DNA of 64,000 nucleotides from Candidatus Gastranaerophilales bacterium. GTDB lineage: Bacteria > Cyanobacteriota > Vampirovibrionia > Gastranaerophilales > Gastranaerophilaceae. Below the pieces are notes generated by a model, which was not told the DNA's origin, ran no database searches, and saw only the letters and a program-made list of their open reading frames with translations. The stretch spans positions 2,023 through 66,022 of the forward strand of contig CALVAM010000011.1 in the NCBI GenBank assembly GCA_944325545.1, in the 5' to 3' direction. The position numbers were made by a program, and so were the translations under genes. This document shows, piece after piece, positions 14,686 to 37,809 of the stretch (the first letter of the stretch is position 1; the number at the start of each line of letters is the position of its first letter).

Positions 14686-14697
14686 GTATTTAATATT

Positions 14698-14722
14698 CTA
14701 TTCACTACTCACTATTCACTAA
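14698..14722. repeat. Dispersed 25-nt heptamer element, copy 1 (CTATTCACTACTCACTATTCACTAA)
   Basis: Exact match to copies at 31351 and 33098; one mismatch to the copy at 31819. Confidence 0.9.
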
Positions 14723-15155
14723 CTTCATTTATCTTTCTAAGTCTACATCTTATTATGTATTCTATACCAAAAAATAAACCTACAAGCATATAGGAAATAA
14801 ATCCATTATATAAAATCCAAATCTCTTTTGATAAAAATACTGTTATAAGAGATACTAAAAAGTTTAAAAACATAAAAATAGACCAAAGATAAGTAAGATT
14901 TCTCGTGTATTTTAATACCCATTCTTTAGCGTCAGGCTCTATAGCTAAAGCAAATTTTTGAATAGCAGTTCTTTCTTGAAATATTGATGAAAAAAATACA
15001 ATAAAAAGTCCTAAATTTACCACAACAGGATAGTATTTAAAAAATATTAAATTCGTAAAATGAAATGCAAAAATTACCAAAAACATGGTAACAAAAGGCA
15101 AAATTGCTTTAAAAAATTTACCCAAGCAAGCCATAAACAGCTTCCACAATATCAT
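14712..15155 (-). CDS. COG4648-type membrane protein (ApeG-like)
   Basis: KYYPVVVN, FFSSIF, YTRNLTYLWSIF, W.LYNGFISYMLVG..FGIEY..R; start could be 15134. Confidence 0.82.
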   Translation of the reverse strand: MILWKLFMACLGKFFKAILPFVTMFLVIFAFHFTNLIFFKYYPVVVNLGLFIVFFSSIFQERTAIQKFALAIEPDAKEWVLKYTRNLTYLWSIFMFLNFLVSLITVFLSKEIWILYNGFISYMLVGLFFGIEYIIRCRLRKINEVSE

Positions 15156-31323: not shown

Positions 31324-31350
31324 TATTTATTCCTTTCGTAGTTTATAATT

Positions 31351-31375
31351 CTATTCACTACTCACTATTCACTAA
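31351..31375. repeat. 25-nt heptamer element, copy 2
   Basis: CTATTCACTACTCACTATTCACTAA exact. Confidence 0.9.
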
Positions 31376-31418
31376 TTACTTTTTCTTTATTTTTATTAAG
31401 CTTTTTACTCATTCTTAC

Positions 31419-31772
31419 TTAATTTCCGACGTATTTTTCCATTTGTCTGTAGATTTGATCTGCAAATCCAAAAGACGTTCTCGGATTGTTTGCAATATCA
31501 TGTCCCATTTGTTGGTATACTATTGATTTAAATGTATCAACGTAGTGAGTTTCTTTTCCAAATAGTCCATTTTCTCTATCAACAGTTTTGTCCATTTGGG
31601 AAAGCATTTTGGTTATAAAAATACTTTCAAATTCTGTTGCAGCTTTTCTTAACTGTTCTTTAGAATCACTTGAACCTTTAATTTGGTTATACAAAACTTG
31701 ATCTGAATTAACTGTCTGAGCATTTTGTAAACCGCTTTTTATTAAATCTATTGTAGGAGTTGAAAAATCCAT
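31419..31772 (-). CDS. flgJ: Single-domain FlgJ (rod-binding domain only)
   Basis: LRKAATEFESIFITKMLSQM.KTV and SFGFADQIYRQM; no muramidase domain. Confidence 0.85.
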   Translation of the reverse strand: MDFSTPTIDLIKSGLQNAQTVNSDQVLYNQIKGSSDSKEQLRKAATEFESIFITKMLSQMDKTVDRENGLFGKETHYVDTFKSIVYQQMGHDIANNPRTSFGFADQIYRQMEKYVGN

Positions 31773-31811
31773 ATTATCCTTTCATTATTGAATAGTTTAT
31801 AAGATAAATTT

Positions 31812-31843
31812 CTATTTACTATTCACTACTCACCATTCACTAA
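31812..31843. repeat. 25-nt heptamer element, copy 3 (one mismatch plus an extra heptamer)
   Basis: CTATTTA-CTATTCACTACTCACCATTCACTAA directly abutting the flgI stop. Confidence 0.85.
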
Positions 31844-32947
31844 TTAAATTATTACTAAATCAGCTTGTAAGCTTCCTGATTTTTTAAGTGCTTGTAAGAT
31901 AGAAATTAAATCAACAGGTGCAACTCCAATTGAATTTAAAGCTCTTACTAAATCATTAAGATTACTATTTGCAGGCATTGTAACTAAACTACCCGGAGCT
32001 TTGTTAATTTCTATATCAGAATTTTCAAACCCAACAGTCGCACCATTTGCAAACGCATTGGGTTGAGAAACATCGTTTGTTGTTGAAACTGTAACGGTTA
32101 TGTTACCGTGAGCTACCGCTGCAGGAAGTAATTTAACATCTGCTCCGATTACGACAGTTCCTGTTCTTTCATTAACAACAACTTTTGCTCTATCCATTGT
32201 TGGTGAAACTTCCAAATTTTCTAGAATAGAGATAAAAGTCACTCTATCATTCATGAATTTAGCAGGGATTTCCACTCTTACTGAACTTCCGTCAATAGCT
32301 TGAGCCGGTGCTATTTGAGATACTGATTTTGCAATTCTTGATACAAGAGTATAATCAGAACGGTCAATTGATAATGTAATAGAATTTTCATCACCGATTT
32401 CTGTATAAATATCTCTTTCAATTATTGCTCCACCAGGGATTCTGCCTGTTGTAGTAATAGCAGTTCTTGCAGAAGAACCTCCGGCTATTTTATTAATCCC
32501 ACCAACAGATAAAGGTCCTTGAGCTACCGCTACTGCTTCTCCGTTTGGTGCTTTTAAAATAGTTTGAACTAAAACTCCACCCTCTAAGCTCTTACAGTCT
32601 GCCATTGCTGATACTGTTACGTCGATTTTATCACCATTTTTAGAAAACGGAGGAACTGTTGCTGTTACTATTACTGCAGCAGAAGCCCCTTTTTGGATGT
32701 AGTTTTCTTGATCAATTACAGTACCTAAATTTCTTAATAACATTTTATTAGTAATCTGTGTAGAACGAGAATTATCACCTGTTCCAGGAAGACCAACTAC
32801 TACACCATAGCCTACTAATTGGTTTTCTCTAACTCCCTTAATATGAGTCAAATCCATGATTCTTACTTTTGCATCTATTGCTCTGCAAGGTAATAACCCT
32901 GTTAACATCATAAATATTACTAATAAACTTGATAAAACTTTTTTCAT
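31844..32947 (-). CDS. flgI: Flagellar P-ring protein
   Basis: GVRENQLVGYGVVVGLPGTGD, DCKSLEGGVL, VVVNERTGTVVIG, DLISILQALKKSGSL. Confidence 0.97.
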   Translation of the reverse strand: MKKVLSSLLVIFMMLTGLLPCRAIDAKVRIMDLTHIKGVRENQLVGYGVVVGLPGTGDNSRSTQITNKMLLRNLGTVIDQENYIQKGASAAVIVTATVPPFSKNGDKIDVTVSAMADCKSLEGGVLVQTILKAPNGEAVAVAQGPLSVGGINKIAGGSSARTAITTTGRIPGGAIIERDIYTEIGDENSITLSIDRSDYTLVSRIAKSVSQIAPAQAIDGSSVRVEIPAKFMNDRVTFISILENLEVSPTMDRAKVVVNERTGTVVIGADVKLLPAAVAHGNITVTVSTTNDVSQPNAFANGATVGFENSDIEINKAPGSLVTMPANSNLNDLVRALNSIGVAPVDLISILQALKKSGSLQADLVII

Positions 32948-32971: not shown

Positions 32972-33129
32972 TATGAGTGAGGAGTGAGGTGAAACGAGAA
33001 ATTTATTTCAAATTTTTCTTTTCTATTCACTATTTACTAATTACTACTTTTAACACCCTCTTCACTCATCACACCTCGCACATCACTTTTTACTAATCTA
33101 TTCACTACTCACTATTCACTAATCACTTT
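32972..33129. repeat. Degenerate heptamer tract between flgA and flgI, containing 25-mer copy 4 (33098-33122) and an oppositely oriented AGTGAGG run
   Basis: TCAC/TTAC units at about 7-nt period from 33023; TGAGTGAGGAGTGAGGTGA at about 32974-32992 in the other orientation. Confidence 0.8.
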
Positions 33130-33834
33130 TTATATATTTACCAAAACCTTATTTTCTCCGATTACTTTTCCATTGTATACTTTTTTATAATTTTTATTTT
33201 CTACATTGACGTAATCTCCGGTCATTCCATCCATCATCGCAGTTCCGTCAATCGATATCATTACTGCCCCATTTGATACAAAGAAAATTCTTACATCAGA
33301 ATTTCTTGCTACATCAGGACGCATTTTTACAAATCTTTTGTCAATAATTTCACCTTTTTGAAATGCTTTTTTAGTAGTGATTTCTTTTTCCAACATTTTT
33401 TCTGTAAGAATATAATCCATTCTCATTGAAACATCTACTTTTTTTACTTCTGTACAATCTTTTGTTAAAGTCTGTTCTCTTGCGATAAAATCACTAGCTA
33501 CAAGGACTTCTTCATAGACAATAGTTTGTACCGGTAAGTTTAATGATTTTACAAAAGCATTATTTACATAAATATCAACTCTTTTTATATCACGAGGAAG
33601 AATTTTATCTCCGCCTGATACAATTTTATAAGAGATTTTTCCATCAGGTAATTGCAATTGTGCAAAAGGAGTTGCAGAAACTTTTACTTCTACATCACCT
33701 GAGGTCATTTTTTTGTAGTTATCTTCTAAAATTTGAGCAACAGAAACTTTTACATTGGCAGAAGAAAGCATTTGAGCATTTGCTCCTAAACTTCCTACTA
33801 ACATTATTAAAGCTGTTACTACAATTTTTTTCAT
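33130..33834 (-). CDS. flgA: Flagellar P-ring formation chaperone
   Basis: Signal peptide, SAF-like domain, C-terminal G.AMMDG..G..V.VEN...KKV..GKV. Confidence 0.85.
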   Translation of the reverse strand: MKKIVVTALIMLVGSLGANAQMLSSANVKVSVAQILEDNYKKMTSGDVEVKVSATPFAQLQLPDGKISYKIVSGGDKILPRDIKRVDIYVNNAFVKSLNLPVQTIVYEEVLVASDFIAREQTLTKDCTEVKKVDVSMRMDYILTEKMLEKEITTKKAFQKGEIIDKRFVKMRPDVARNSDVRIFFVSNGAVMISIDGTAMMDGMTGDYVNVENKNYKKVYNGKVIGENKVLVNI

Positions 33835-33878
33835 CTACTACTTACCTTTTTGTTTTGAGACTCTAACTTTCTTATGAA

Positions 33879-33916
33879 CCCCACCCCCTAGCCCCCTCCC
33901 TCAAGGGGCGGGGGAA
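33879..33916. repeat. GC-rich REP-like hairpin
   Basis: CCCCACCCCCTAGCCCCCTCCCTCAAGGGGCGGGGGAA in an otherwise very AT-rich region; CCCCC.CCC/GGG.GGGGG stem. Confidence 0.55.
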
Positions 33917-33988
33917 TTGAATTCTCCCCTTTACTTATTATTTTGTTGGACTAGTAAGCTCAACCTAATTTTGTTTAATTTTCAAAAT

Positions 33989-34167
33989 TCTCTTCACTAG
34001 TCACTTCTCACTCATCACTTTTTAACAATCTCTTCACACCTCACTCTTCACTAGTCACTTCTCACTCATCACTTTTTAACAATCTCTTCATACCTCACTC
34101 TTCACTAGTCACTTCTCACTCATCACTTTTTAACAATCTCTTCACACCTCACTCTTCACTAGTCACT
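33989..34167. repeat. Tandem repeat, 54-bp unit, about 3.3 copies
   Basis: Units start at 33991, 34045, 34099 and 34153 (TCTTCACTAGTCACTTCTCACTCATCACTTTTTAACAATCTCTTCACACCTCAC); one substitution among the three full copies. Confidence 0.95.
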
Positions 34168-34170
34168 CTA

Positions 34171-34956
34171 TTATGACATATTATTAGTTAATTGAAGAAT
34201 ATTGCTTGAAGAGTTAATTATTTTTGAATTAGATTCAAAAGCTCTTTCTGCTTTAATCAAACCAACCAATTCATCAACAATTTGAACGTTAGAACCTTCA
34301 AGCATACCTTGTTGAATCAAACCTAAACCGTTTTGTCCAGGAGTATCTTGAACAGGGTTTCCTGAAGCTTGAGTTTCTTTGTACAAATTATGTCCGATTG
34401 ATAAAAGACCTGATGGGTTTTGGAATTTTACCAACTGAAGCGAACCAACAATAGATTGTTGAGTTTGTCCGGGAAGTGTTACTGATATATTACCGTCTTG
34501 AGTAATAGTAATTTCAGTAGCATCTCTTGGAATAGAAACAGAAGGCTGAATTAAAAGCCCGTCATTTGTACATAATTGACCTAAAGAGTCTACTTGCAAA
34601 CAACCGTCACGAGTGTAAGCAAGAGAACCGTCTTCTTTCATTACTTGTAAGAAACCTTCCCCTTCGATTTCGATATCAAGTTGACGTCCTGTTGAAATTG
34701 CAACACCTTGAGTGAATACACGAGTAGTCGCGGCTGTTTTTACCCCAAGCCCGATTTCTATACCAACAGGTTGATAAGTACCTTGATTCATCAATGCACC
34801 AGGAGTTCTTACTGCTTGTGATAACAAATCTTGAAACTCTATTCTTGATTGTTTAAATGCAGTAGTGTTAACGTTTGCTACGTTGTTTGCAATTACATCA
34901 AGATAGTTTTGTTGTGCTATCATACCTGTTGCTGCTGTTGTTAATGCTCTTAACAT
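34171..34956 (-). CDS. flgG: Flagellar distal rod protein
   Basis: ANNVANVNTTAFK, FQDLLSQ, IGLGVK, YTRDG, LEGSNV. Confidence 0.95.
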   Translation of the reverse strand: MLRALTTAATGMIAQQNYLDVIANNVANVNTTAFKQSRIEFQDLLSQAVRTPGALMNQGTYQPVGIEIGLGVKTAATTRVFTQGVAISTGRQLDIEIEGEGFLQVMKEDGSLAYTRDGCLQVDSLGQLCTNDGLLIQPSVSIPRDATEITITQDGNISVTLPGQTQQSIVGSLQLVKFQNPSGLLSIGHNLYKETQASGNPVQDTPGQNGLGLIQQGMLEGSNVQIVDELVGLIKAERAFESNSKIINSSSNILQLTNNMS

Positions 34957-35024: not shown

Positions 35025-35852
35025 TTAACTTGTTCTTATTCGTCCTACAGATACTGCTGTTGTTAACATGTCACTATTTGTACTTACTATTTTGGTTAAA
35101 CTTTCATAATTTCTTGTGGTATTAATTGTATTAATCATTTCTTTTATTACGTTTGAATTTGAAAGTTCTAACATCCCTTGTTGTACAGTAAATTTTTCCG
35201 AACGTAATTCAGGATTATTGATAATATCACGCGGTACAAATTTTGCATCACCTATTTCAAACAAATCATCTTTATCCGCAAAATCGTAAACACCAATTGT
35301 TTGAAGCGGTATTTTTTGATTGTATGAGTTAATTTCAATATTTCCGTTTTCTGCAATTACGATATCTTTTCTATCTCTGAAAATAGTTTCATCATCCATA
35401 TCTTCAGGAAGCATTCTAATTCTTCTATTATTGATATCTAAAACAAACTCTCCTTGTTTTGTTTTAAGCCAATAACCTCTATCAACAACGAATGAACCAT
35501 TACGAGTATATGAAACATTACCCTCTGCATCTTGAATTTTAAAGAAACCATCACCTTCGATTGCTACATCATAAGGATTTGAAGTCTTCGTTAATGCTCC
35601 TTGTGAAAAATCGTGAGTATATTGCATACTCTGACTTCCGCAACTTAAACTTCCTATATATTCATTTGAATGATTACGAATTACAGAACCTTCTTTGTTG
35701 TATACAGCTGATTCCATAATATCTTTAAATCTTAATGAACCTTTTTTATAACCTACTGTATTAACATTTGCCAAATTATTAGCAGTATTATCATTCATAT
35801 CCATAAGAGCGAGCATGCCGTTAGCAGCTGATTCAAAACTTCTTACTATCAT
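35025..35852 (-). CDS. flgF: Flagellar proximal rod/basal-body protein
   Basis: ANNLANVNTVGYKK, DFSQG, DVAIEGDGFF, YTRNGSF, LELSNSN; upstream of flgG. Confidence 0.85.
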   Translation of the reverse strand: MIVRSFESAANGMLALMDMNDNTANNLANVNTVGYKKGSLRFKDIMESAVYNKEGSVIRNHSNEYIGSLSCGSQSMQYTHDFSQGALTKTSNPYDVAIEGDGFFKIQDAEGNVSYTRNGSFVVDRGYWLKTKQGEFVLDINNRRIRMLPEDMDDETIFRDRKDIVIAENGNIEINSYNQKIPLQTIGVYDFADKDDLFEIGDAKFVPRDIINNPELRSEKFTVQQGMLELSNSNVIKEMINTINTTRNYESLTKIVSTNSDMLTTAVSVGRIRTS

Positions 35853-35905
35853 TACTTCGCTCCTTTCTTTTTAACTTGAGGGGCTAAATCCAATCTATTG
35901 TACAT
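35852..35905 (-). CDS. Putative micro-ORF 3 (MYNRLDLAPQVKKKGAK)
   Basis: AAGGAG SD upstream; its TAA overlaps the flgF ATG (TAATG). Confidence 0.35.
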   Translation of the reverse strand: MYNRLDLAPQVKKKGAK

Positions 35906-35960
35906 TTACCCCCGCTCCTTTCTTTTTTACTAGGCGGGTTAAGTTCAATCTAATAAACAT
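35895..35960 (-). CDS. Putative micro-ORF 2 (MFIRLNLTRLVKKKGAGVNVQ)
   Basis: AAGGAG SD upstream; overlaps the end of micro-ORF 1 by 11 nt. Confidence 0.35.
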   Translation of the reverse strand: MFIRLNLTRLVKKKGAGVNVQ

Positions 35961-36015
35961 TTACCCCCGCTCCTTTCTTTTTTGCTTGGCGGGTTAAGTT
36001 CAATCTAATAAACAT
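35950..36015 (-). CDS. Putative micro-ORF 1 (MFIRLNLTRQAKKKGAGVNVY)
   Basis: ATG directly follows the slt stop (TAAATG); GAAAGGGGGG upstream; ends TAG. Confidence 0.35.
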   Translation of the reverse strand: MFIRLNLTRQAKKKGAGVNVY

Positions 36016-36561
36016 TTACCCCCCTTTCATTTTTTCATAGTTGCTTAAAACACTTTTTACGTAATTCTGTGTTTCCATATATGGTGGTATCCCACCGTAT
36101 TTTTTTACTGCATTAGGCCCTGCATTATATGCTGCTAATGCTAATGACTTGTTATTATCAAATCTATCCATTAAACCTTTTAGATATTTAGTTCCGCCTT
36201 GAATATTTTGTTCTGCATCATAAGCATTGGTAACCCCAAGTCCTTCTGCGGTTGATGGCATTAATTGCATAAGTCCCATTGCACCGCATTTTGATGTCGC
36301 ATTTGGGTTAAATCCTGATTCTTGTTTTACTACAGCTTTTACGAAATCAGAATCTAAACCGTTTTTCTCTGCATATTTTTCTATTAATTCATTAATCTCA
36401 GTTCTTGAAGTTTCAGTAGAATTTTTCTTATTAGAAATAGATGAGTCTAAGATTTTTTGAAAATCTTCATCAGGCTTAGCTCCATAAGACATAAGTGATT
36501 GAAATTGATTTTCAATCATACTTATTCTCTGTAAAGTTATATCCAAGCTCGTAAGATTCAT
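36016..36561 (-). CDS. Lytic transglycosylase (SLT domain) heading the flagellar operon
   Basis: AVVKQESGFNP, GAMGLMQLMP.TA, QNIQGGTKYL, ALAAYNAGP, ETQNYV. Confidence 0.95.
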   Translation of the reverse strand: MNLTSLDITLQRISMIENQFQSLMSYGAKPDEDFQKILDSSISNKKNSTETSRTEINELIEKYAEKNGLDSDFVKAVVKQESGFNPNATSKCGAMGLMQLMPSTAEGLGVTNAYDAEQNIQGGTKYLKGLMDRFDNNKSLALAAYNAGPNAVKKYGGIPPYMETQNYVKSVLSNYEKMKGG

Positions 36562-36695
36562 CTTACGTCACCTTCCTCTTATTTTCTACTTACCCAAGTC
36601 TATTTTTCTACAATTTTAGGATATTTCTTCCCAATAAAAGTGTAATATATTTTTATTGAAGCAACATCAATCATAGGGTTAGAATTTTTATACTT

Positions 36696-36717
36696 ATCTA
36701 GACCATGTGGTCTAGAT
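36696..36717. promoter_or_regulatory. Perfect inverted repeat, candidate operator upstream of the slt-flg operon
   Basis: ATCTAGACCA-TG-TGGTCTAGAT; no U-tract on either side. Confidence 0.5.
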
Positions 36718-36795
36718 GAATATTGATTTAATATAAGCAGGTTATATTTTGATAAAAATCAATTTTTATTTGTCAAAACAATATTTTAGAAGATT

Positions 36796-37809
36796 TTATT
36801 CTGCAATTTTTATATATGCTTTAAAAATCTTATTTGAAATTGTGTCGTCAAAGGCTTTTTGAATTTTATCAAGGGGGTAAGTGGTTGTTAGATTTTTTAC
36901 ATTTACTTTTTTAGATGTTATTAATTCATAAGAGTCTTTTAAATCACTTGGAGAAGGGGAATAGCTTCCTAAAACAGTTAGTTCTTTGTAATAAATTTCG
37001 TTATTAGGATATCCATTACTTAGCGGAGTGCTTGAAAATACTAAAATTTTACCACCCTGTCTTATTGATGATAAAGCGACATCAATTGCTTTATCGGCTC
37101 CTGAAGTCATAAAGACAGCATCAACTCCATAGTCATTTGTTTTGTCTTTTATAATTCTTGAGAATTCTTCGAGGTTTTTGGAATTAAAAGCTTGAATTCC
37201 CATTTTATTTGCAAGGGTAATTCTTTCAGGGATTAAATCACAACCGTATACATTGAATCCTAATGCTTTTAGACCTTCACTCATTAAAAGTCCGATTGAG
37301 CCAAGACCGACTACAAGAACGTTATCATTTTTTAAAAGATTGCATCTTTTAATTGCTCTAATACAGCAACCTAGTGGTTCATAAAATGAAATTTCTTCTT
37401 CTGAAATATCGTTTGGGATAATATATGCAACATTTTCTAAATGTTCTTCTGAAACATAAACAAGTTCACTAAAACCTCCGGGGAAGATGTTTGTTTTTTT
37501 AAAATGTTCGCACATTGAAACATTACCGTGTCTGCAATAGTTACATTCTCCACAAGGAATATGATGAGAGGTTACGATTTTATCTCCGATTTTAAAATTA
37601 GTATTAGAATTTATTTCAACAATTTCTGCAACGATTTCGTGTCCTAAAACTGCACCATTTTTGACAATTTTGTGTTTAAATTTTACAATATCAGAACCGC
37701 AAAGTCCGCAACCTAAGACTTTTACTATTGCACCTCTTCTGTTATCAAGTTTTATATCATCAATTTCTTTTACTACAATTTTATCGTTTTCTATTTGTGC
37801 GGTTTTCAT
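36796..37809 (-). CDS. Zinc-dependent medium-chain dehydrogenase (sorbitol/threonine dehydrogenase-like)
   Basis: CGLCGSD, GHE, structural Zn CGECNYCRHGNVSMC, GLGSIG. Confidence 0.93.
   Translation of the reverse strand: MKTAQIENDKIVVKEIDDIKLDNRRGAIVKVLGCGLCGSDIVKFKHKIVKNGAVLGHEIVAEIVEINSNTNFKIGDKIVTSHHIPCGECNYCRHGNVSMCEHFKKTNIFPGGFSELVYVSEEHLENVAYIIPNDISEEEISFYEPLGCCIRAIKRCNLLKNDNVLVVGLGSIGLLMSEGLKALGFNVYGCDLIPERITLANKMGIQAFNSKNLEEFSRIIKDKTNDYGVDAVFMTSGADKAIDVALSSIRQGGKILVFSSTPLSNGYPNNEIYYKELTVLGSYSPSPSDLKDSYELITSKKVNVKNLTTTYPLDKIQKAFDDTISNKIFKAYIKIAE

Follow-up and report, generated by a model that had tools for sequence, protein, structure and literature searches.

A strain-variable array of 55-nt units with overlapping micro-ORFs at the junction of a lytic transglycosylase gene and flgF in a Candidatus Gastranaerophilales bacterium

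We analysed a 64,000-nt window of DNA (the whole stretch, positions 2,023-66,022 of the forward strand of contig CALVAM010000011.1) from Candidatus Gastranaerophilales bacterium assembly GCA_944325545.1, in which three tandem units of about 55 nt, each with a very short open reading frame (micro-ORF), separate the gene of a lytic transglycosylase with an SLT domain (slt) from the flagellar rod gene flgF. The number of units varies from 0 to 3 among strains, and the allele without units shows the stop/start overlap which is the rule at this junction across the genus. The explanation that we lean towards is that the array is a tolerated, strain-variable repeat of the junction, whose modules of Shine-Dalgarno sequence (SD), stop codon and start codon would keep flgF coupled to the translation of the upstream gene.

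The whole SLT-flgF-flgG-flgA-flgI-FlgJ region lies on the minus strand in that order. An earlier note on this DNA had read the gene names, the 55-bp repeat, the three overlapping micro-ORFs and the geometry of the SDs, stops and starts, and all of these are correct on that strand. Tandem Repeats Finder (TRF) places the array at 35858-36023 with a period of 55, 3.0 copies and 89% matches. Read on the minus strand, each unit opens with an ATG, continues with some 30 nt of head sequence that include CCCGCC, and closes with AAAAAAGAAAGGAGCGGGGGTAA. The slt gene (36561..36016, minus strand, 181 aa; Pfam PF01464, 1.6e-33) ends with a TAA at 36018-36016 that abuts the ATG of micro-ORF 1 with zero gap. 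Unit 1 (35961..36015, 55 nt) opens micro-ORF 1 (36015..35950, 21 aa, MFIRLNLTRQAKKKGAGVNVY), and unit 2 (35906..35960, 55 nt), which differs from unit 1 by 2 substitutions, opens micro-ORF 2 (35960..35895, 21 aa, MFIRLNLTRLVKKKGAGVNVQ). The stop codon of each of these two lies 11 nt beyond the next ATG, giving overlaps of 11 nt. The terminal unit 3 (35852..35905) measures 53 nt from ATG to ATG and carries micro-ORF 3 (35905..35852, 17 aa, MYNRLDLAPQVKKKGAK), whose TAA (35854-35852) shares one base with the ATG (35852-35850) of flgF, the gene of the proximal rod protein (35852..35025, minus strand, 275 aa; Pfam PF22692, PF06429 and PF00460). Since 55 is not a multiple of 3, successive micro-ORFs shift frame. 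The three micro-ORFs are copies of one unit and therefore represent one event, not three independent coincidences.

Every start in the array is preceded by AAAGGAG, which at the end of slt takes the form AAAGGGGGG. A 9-nt core, GGGGTAAAT, is present at each unit boundary (36014-36022, 35959-35967 and 35904-35912, minus strand) and is made up of the G-run that ends the SD, the stop TAA, and AT, the first two letters of the ATG that follows. The unit head bears an imperfect inverted copy of this core (GGGGTAAAT ... ATTTAACCC), which accounts for the hairpin placed around every AUG by RNAfold. The complementarity behind the CCCGC/GCGGG stem proposed earlier is present in units 1 and 2, and the terminal unit lacks the G-run. 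In the window the SLT protein ends ...EKMKGG*, its tail being 4 nt shorter than the tails of the internal units (AAAGGAGCGGGGGTAA), and the tail of unit 3, AAAGGAGCGAAGTAATG, equals the ancestral slt 3' end plus the flgF SD. Comparison of the tails shows that the C-terminal half of the micro-ORF peptides is the old SLT tail. That the unit tail is the ancestral slt 3' end, and that the core is a repeat-seeding motif found genome-wide, are points that go beyond the earlier note. An origin of the unit head as a duplication of the flgF 5' end was rejected, the similarity being not significant (P 0.29-0.98). Unit 1 compared to the spacer of a rumen lineage (L094, described below) gives a P of about 0.0005, and the consensus unit compared to the same spacer gives about 0.2.

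The ancestral form of the junction can be read from relatives. About 130 loci from the genus and the family were compared at the SLT-flgF junction, and they comprise 79 distinct combinations of FlgF protein and junction. The SLT stop and the flgF start overlap by one base (TAATG) in 41 of the 79 and by four bases (ATGA) in 17, so that 58 of the distinct junctions are of the -1 or -4 type; gaps of 0-3 nt are seen in 10 and a gap of 25 nt in one. TAATG also occurs in other genera of the family. The usual SLT tail, ...KMKGAN*, is coded by AAAATGAAAGGAGCGAACTAATG, and therefore the flgF SD (AAAGGAG) lies within the last SLT codons.

Independent metagenome contigs, added by exact-protein look-ups of FlgF and SLT, brought the allele set to 27 loci (a few of which are the same contig fetched twice) with 12 distinct junction alleles. 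The 0-unit allele (L150, L151, L154 and L155) reads ...AAAATGAAAGGAGCGAAGTAATG, its SLT ending KMKGAK*, and has the stop/start overlap typical of the genus. The 1-unit allele (L152 and L153) has a gap of 53 nt, five 2-unit alleles have a gap of 108 nt, and five 3-unit alleles, including that of the window, have gaps of 162-163 nt. A 54-nt unit in L033 is a variant in the length of the G-run. The array-bearing sequences form one clade of the FlgF tree (support 100/99). There are two nucleotide lineages: lineage A, which includes the window, carries 2-3 units, and lineage B carries 0, 1, 2 and 3. Two contigs of lineage B, one with 0 and one with 3 units, have flanks that are 98.7% (flgF) and 98.4% (SLT) identical. 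It follows that the array arose once and persisted through the split of about 9% in coding DNA between the two lineages, and that its copy number shifts freely, a precise loss restoring the intact overlap. The repeated tails (AAAAATGAAAGG...) would be the obvious substrates for slippage or unequal exchange. As strains with near-identical flanks carry 0-3 units, the array is dispensable, which a regulatory device with a fixed role would not be.

An artefact of assembly can be rejected as the source of the array. It is covered by Logan unitigs in four chicken-gut runs, in which a 36-nt unitig common to units 1 and 2 has a depth of 43 as compared to about 20 in the flanks, the twofold depth to be expected if two copies are near-identical and the third is diverged. 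Independent assemblies bear the array as well. A dispersed or mobile unit was also considered and rejected. Fuzzy search and blastn-short found no other copy of the unit in the 1.82-Mb genome, and a degenerate pattern of the unit head matched 4 of 98 genus genomes, at this locus every time. A scan of JGI metagenomes for the unit gave one chance match, in unrelated GC-rich DNA.

A mechanism can be proposed for how such an insertion would be tolerated. A repeat entered the one-base TAATG overlap in a small clade of chicken-gut Gastranaerophilales and, as its tail copies the slt 3' end together with the SD, each unit rebuilds the SD, the stop and the ATG and has an open frame. Ribosomes finishing SLT would restart at the abutting ATG, each micro-ORF would terminate on or just beyond the next start, and the last micro-ORF would be read through the flgF SD to stop on the flgF ATG, as SLT does in the ancestral and 0-unit state. 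The translation of flgF would thereby stay coupled to upstream translation. The relay would be the property that makes the insertion tolerable, as with the interspersed repetitive units of mycobacteria (MIRUs) discussed below, and not an evolved regulator; the peptides would be by-products, and recombination or slippage between the repeated tails would alter the copy number. The data themselves show the anatomy of the array, its polymorphism, the ancestral state and the confinement to one locus; the translation of the micro-ORFs and the dependence of flgF on them are what we infer from the sequence. Of the translational-coupling device suggested earlier, the ribosome relay is thus physically plausible and has indirect comparative support, while the idea of a fixed regulatory device does not hold, since strains carry 0-3 units.

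The comparative support comes from other long spacers at the same junction. In relatives, all spacers of at least 50 nt, found in four lineages, are bridged by a micro-ORF or by an in-frame SLT tail. In L074, a metagenome-assembled genome (MAG) from horse gut, about 50 extra nt are present as an in-frame SLT tail. The rumen lineages L089, L091 and L094 have spacers of 53-59 nt, each with one ORF of 17-18 codons which begins 0-6 nt after the SLT stop and whose TGA overlaps the flgF start; the three peptides are mutually unrelated. On shuffling, a bridging frame appeared in 14%, 5% and 7% of trials for L089, L091 and L094, respectively. Several species show in-frame, GVN-type expansions of the SLT tail, (GGGGTAAATNNN)n, all of which stay in frame. 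Taken together, these junctions give indirect support to the view that it is of consequence at this junction for translation to extend to the flgF start. In L046-L050, from related species, the SLT C-termini are lengthened by in-frame repeats of GGGGTAAAT plus 3 nt (for example GVNAGVNSGVNSGVNAGVNSG), and every extended tail finishes with ...GG(R/K)N* on the ATG of flgF. Expansions of the GGGGTAAAT motif thus have a hot spot at the slt 3' end.

A second line of comparison concerns the beginning of flgF. The flgF SD segment AGGAGCGA (35864-35857, minus strand) lies in the last codons of the upstream ORF and forms the 5' arm of a proposed SD-sequestering helix, the 3' arm being TCGCTCTT in flgF codons 14-16 (CTC GCT CTT; 35812-35805, minus strand). 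Among 37 genus sequences, 87.8% of the cells pair between these arms, as compared to 45-56% once the partner is shifted by 1-3 columns, and a separate count by ourselves is in agreement. The three codons are rare synonymous forms that are fixed across the genus: codon 14 is CTC in 32, CTT in 25 and CTA in 1 of 58 Leu codons, and codon 16 is CTT in 64 of 76, against genome-wide Leu usage of 56% TTA, 19% CTT and 1.5% CTC, while codon 15 (Ala) is GCT in 63, GCC in 11 and GCA in 2 of 76, against genome-wide usage of 45% GCT and 43% GCA. In partition-function folding, the mean unpaired probability of the flgF start region is 0.30-0.31 for 0-3 units alike. The SD/codon complementarity, the rare codons and the low predicted accessibility fit the unfolding model of translational coupling reviewed in PMC12548453.

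Several observations weigh against a relay on which flgF depends. The proposed helix was derived from the same 37 sequences on which the pairing was scored, its covariation is not significant (the score is equalled by 119 of 500 shuffles), and it is absent from the RNAalifold prediction. A good SD, AAAGGAG, belongs to flgF itself and lies 7 nt ahead of its ATG, and one relative (L086/L125) has an untranslated gap of 25 nt; therefore, coupling is not obligatory. Micro-ORFs 1 and 2 are poorly placed for reinitiation, with stops 11 nt beyond the following start. The variation in the 19 distinct units known gave no significant sign, in tests of low power, of either frame-keeping or peptide conservation. 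Elsewhere in the genome, a second array (described below) stops short of the next gene, so that a chain of micro-ORFs can form without a gene to couple. The one metatranscriptome with the region has low depth there and the sequence comes from a 95% relative.

The variation itself is as follows. The ATG and the open frame are kept in all 19 distinct units of the 11 non-empty alleles, and so is the pattern of stops and starts that abut or overlap from slt to flgF. The earlier note had raised conservation of unit number and frame in relatives as a check; the frames are indeed open in all 19 units, and the unit number varies from 0 to 3. It had also taken the diverged third unit, with its ORF and coupling preserved, as a hint of selection, which the counts do not bear out. 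Out of 23 variable columns, four that merely separate internal from terminal tails were set aside, and the approximately 20 changes among the 19 units comprise 8 synonymous, 12 non-synonymous (F/Y, I/T/N, N/I/D, Q/L/H, A/V/I and G/E) and 0 stop-creating ones, as compared to 37, 106 and 10, respectively, among the 153 possible single-base changes. By arithmetic, zero stops in 20 changes has a P of about 0.26 and at least 8 synonymous changes in 20 a P of about 0.12, both being tests of low power. Lineages A and B differ by 4-9% in the array, by 16-17% in the flgF-flgG spacer and by 30-37% at four-fold sites of flgF. In L118, a lineage-A contig with an A-type flgF, a lineage-B segment (CCAGACTAAAATGAGG) is present in the flgF-flgG spacer. 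This mosaic means that recombination between lineages can explain the low divergence of the array, and we therefore rejected the latter as a sign of selection.

The strongest competing explanation is that the array is a neutral minisatellite seeded by GGGGTAAAT, in which the micro-ORFs arise automatically as by-products and flgF is read from its own SD regardless. We consider this a real possibility, though a lesser one. The 9-mer GGGGTAAAT occurs 114 times in the genome (1.82 Mb, 29.7% G+C, 37 contigs), where 9.5 copies are expected, an excess of about 12-fold. The copies lie at 92 loci in coding as well as non-coding DNA, without conserved flanks, and 11 of these loci are tandem clusters with periods of 10-59 nt; TRF, run on the whole genome, also reports other arrays that contain this core. 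The motif is enriched in most genus genomes, reaching 404 copies as compared to 10-26 for controls; other genera of the order do not show the excess, and neither do a few species within the genus. At G000:C14:25399-25640, outside the window, a second array has 4.7 units of 51 nt, each consisting of an ATG, 16 codons and a TAA with the next ATG directly after; it starts 9 nt downstream of a 458-aa gene's stop and leaves about 115 nt to the gene that follows. This uncoupled chain weighs towards the by-product view, to which the 0-3 polymorphism between near-identical flanks, the lack of a selection signal in the units, the strong SD of flgF and the untranslated gap of L086 also lend support. What speaks against neutrality is that all four lineages with long spacers bridge them to the flgF start, that the SD is complementary to the rare codons 14-16 of flgF, and that the array differs less between lineages A and B than the flgF-flgG spacer or the four-fold sites, a difference which recombination of the kind seen in L118 could explain.

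Two Y1-transposase (PF01797) genes of the same genome, at G000:C2:156000-156353 and G000:C18:511-858, are flanked by palindromes resembling repetitive extragenic palindromic (REP) sequences, namely GGTGCAAnnnnTTGCACCCTA (TAGGGTGCA occurring about 75 times genome-wide) and GCGGTAAATCnnnnGATTTACCGC (about 8 copies), the latter sharing GGTAAAT with GGGGTAAAT. These genes and palindromes look like the arrangement of REP sequences with REP-associated tyrosine transposases (RAYTs). A link between GGGGTAAAT and the Y1 transposases could not be established, since the GCGGTAAATC..GATTTACCGC palindromes flank one gene and number about 8 copies, as against 114 of the motif.

It is also conceivable, but improbable in our view, that the units act as an adaptive rheostat or contingency locus, reversibly tuning the FlgF:SLT translation ratio or the SLT C-terminus and hence flagellar assembly in the gut. 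Such a function would agree with the reversible variation of 0-3 copies inside one lineage, with the persistence of the array in two lineages 9% apart in flanking coding DNA, with the G-run length variants such as the 54-nt unit of L033, and with an array that is more conserved between lineages than neutral sites. Against it, the predicted accessibility of the flgF start is equal for 0-3 units, the low divergence can be explained by recombination between the lineages, and the copy number never alters the flgF frame.

A cis-acting RNA switch or attenuator, in which the rod genes would be transcribed or translated under the control of alternative CCCGCC/GGGGG hairpins, is quite unlikely. Each G-run can pair with the CCCGCC of its own or of the next unit, and the latter hairpin encloses the AUG. 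However, the fold of the array has a z-score of -1.54 (15 of 200 shuffles are as good), its coding strand has no terminator-like or promoter-like site, Rfam gives no match, and no compensatory changes occur among the 19 units; the terminal unit has no G-run, so that the flgF SD is outside these hairpins, and the 0-unit alleles are viable. Of the alternative hairpins that mark a leader-peptide attenuator, one is an intrinsic terminator with a U-run, of which the array shows no sign, and the attenuation device suggested earlier finds no backing here. The small basic peptide family, also suggested earlier, is the least probable reading of all: the frames are open, each has an SD and an ATG, and synonymous changes are slightly, though not significantly, in excess (8 of 20 vs 26% expected), but 0-unit alleles exist and the peptides are thus absent from some strains, purifying selection of the kind expected for a conserved small protein is not seen, internal and terminal units give peptides of unlike length and C-terminus, non-synonymous changes predominate, the C-terminal half is merely the old SLT tail, and the rumen micro-ORFs code for unrelated peptides.

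The reading that we prefer, a tolerated junction repeat that keeps flgF coupled, has its closest parallel in the MIRUs of the Mycobacterium tuberculosis complex. As far as PMC12548453 relates the work of Supply et al. 1997, the short ORFs of MIRUs are coupled to the downstream gene, and in the senX3-regX3 intergenic region three 77-bp units, or two 77-bp units and one of 53 bp, are present depending on the strain (PMC4213456). Short ORFs that solely deliver ribosomes to the next gene are described in PMC12548453. Like these MIRUs with a variable number of tandem repeats (VNTR), the slt-flgF array consists of tandem units in the range of 50-80 bp within an operon (here 55 nt, three times, between co-oriented genes); the ORF of each unit overlaps or abuts the neighbouring stops and starts, and the last is coupled downstream, here by geometry; the copy number varies among strains (here 0-3); and the last unit is shorter (here 53 vs 55 nt). 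In contrast to MIRUs, which are dispersed and apparently mobile, the unit described here is found at one locus in 4 of 98 genomes, and only the 9-nt core is dispersed. In addition, the 55-nt period changes the frame with each unit, the ORFs overlap by 11 nt, and the array belongs to another phylum (Melainabacteria); kinship with MIRUs at the level of sequence is not to be expected. By analogy, the slt-flgF array would function like a MIRU-VNTR without being a member of the MIRU family.

Translational coupling at TAATG or ATGA junctions operates by termination-reinitiation or by the unfolding of a start hairpin (PMC12548453). The ancestral TAATG of slt and flgF, with the SD inside the upstream ORF, corresponds to this arrangement, as do the TAA-ATG of slt and micro-ORF 1 and the TAATG of micro-ORF 3 and flgF, which have the classical geometry, and the complementarity of the SD to early codons of flgF matches the unfolding model. 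What differs is that three further cistrons of 17-21 codons stand in between, and that at two of the four hand-overs ribosomes would have to start again 11 nt upstream of the stop. Bicistronic design (BCD) leaders are short ORFs used in biotechnology to deliver ribosomes (cited in PMC12548453). The terminal unit is similar to such a leader in being an ORF of about 17 codons with its own SD, with the SD of the next gene in its last codons and with a TAATG at its end. Unlike a BCD leader, the slt-flgF array is natural and not a product of design, and it is tandem and polymorphic.

The relatives of the assembly are MAGs labelled Candidatus Gastranaerophilales or Melainabacteria, and the runs that contain the stretch are chicken-gut metagenomes. 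The SLT-domain gene stands directly upstream of flgF in about 100 relatives and is probably a flagellar rod-channel enzyme. Downstream of flgF follow flgG (34956..34171), flgA (33834..33130), flgI (32947..31844) and FlgJ (31772..31419, 117 aa), all on the minus strand, the last with the Pfam Rod-binding domain only. This division of labour, in which FlgJ has the rod-binding domain alone and a separate SLT enzyme is linked to flgF, is conserved across the family. The gene context matches that of SltF and single-domain FlgJ in Rhodobacter sphaeroides in combining a rod-binding-only FlgJ with a separate SLT-family enzyme among the rod genes; the comparison concerns the flanking genes, not the repeat.

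Other repeats and rearrangements surround these genes. The spacers flgG-flgA, flgA-flgI and flgI-flgJ are filled with repeats of the heptamer type AGTGART (read on the mRNA strand), which are found at 33990-34170, 33014-33130, 31810-31851, 31342-31420 and 14689-14730. In the flgG-flgA spacer they form a higher-order repeat of 54 nt with 3.3 copies, and the flgG-flgA distance is 86 nt in L113, 187 nt in L111, 241 nt in L119 and 336 nt in L112; as it differs among strains, this spacer is another VNTR. Upstream of flgA (33875-33930, minus strand) lies a GC-rich palindromic element, CCCCCGCCCCTTGAGGGAGGGGGCTAGGGGGTGGGG, whose 9-mers (GGGGTGGGG, CCCTTGAGG and others) have about 50 occurrences in this 30% G+C genome, indicating a dispersed small repeat. 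The gene 5' of slt (window positions ~36562-36800) varies in L111-L120, strains with identical FlgF. It is either a zinc alcohol dehydrogenase that shares the strand of slt, which is the state of the window, or uvrA, which runs the opposite way, and this places a rearrangement breakpoint immediately upstream of slt.

MIRUs have already suggested the rule that insertions in coupled junctions survive if an open frame and a restart site span them, and the slt-flgF array would be a clean natural example of this rule in an uncultured phylum. A full series from the intact overlap to the three-step relay, with near-identical flanks, is rarely available. The four natural alleles provide a ready reporter series for the cost of each extra restart, and the locus can be used as a strain marker for chicken-gut Gastranaerophilales. 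The GGGGTAAAT motif, about 12-fold enriched, confined to the genus and seeding tandem arrays, could prove more widely interesting than the array. As a long shot, GGGGTAAAT might even be a genus-specific, self-spreading SD-stop-start module that expands at gene ends into arrays which by their nature keep ribosomes moving, with the reversible 0-3 copies of the slt-flgF array acting as a heritable dial on the translation ratio of FlgF to transglycosylase. If this were true, flagellar rod assembly in gut Melainabacteria would have a contingency locus of a new kind.

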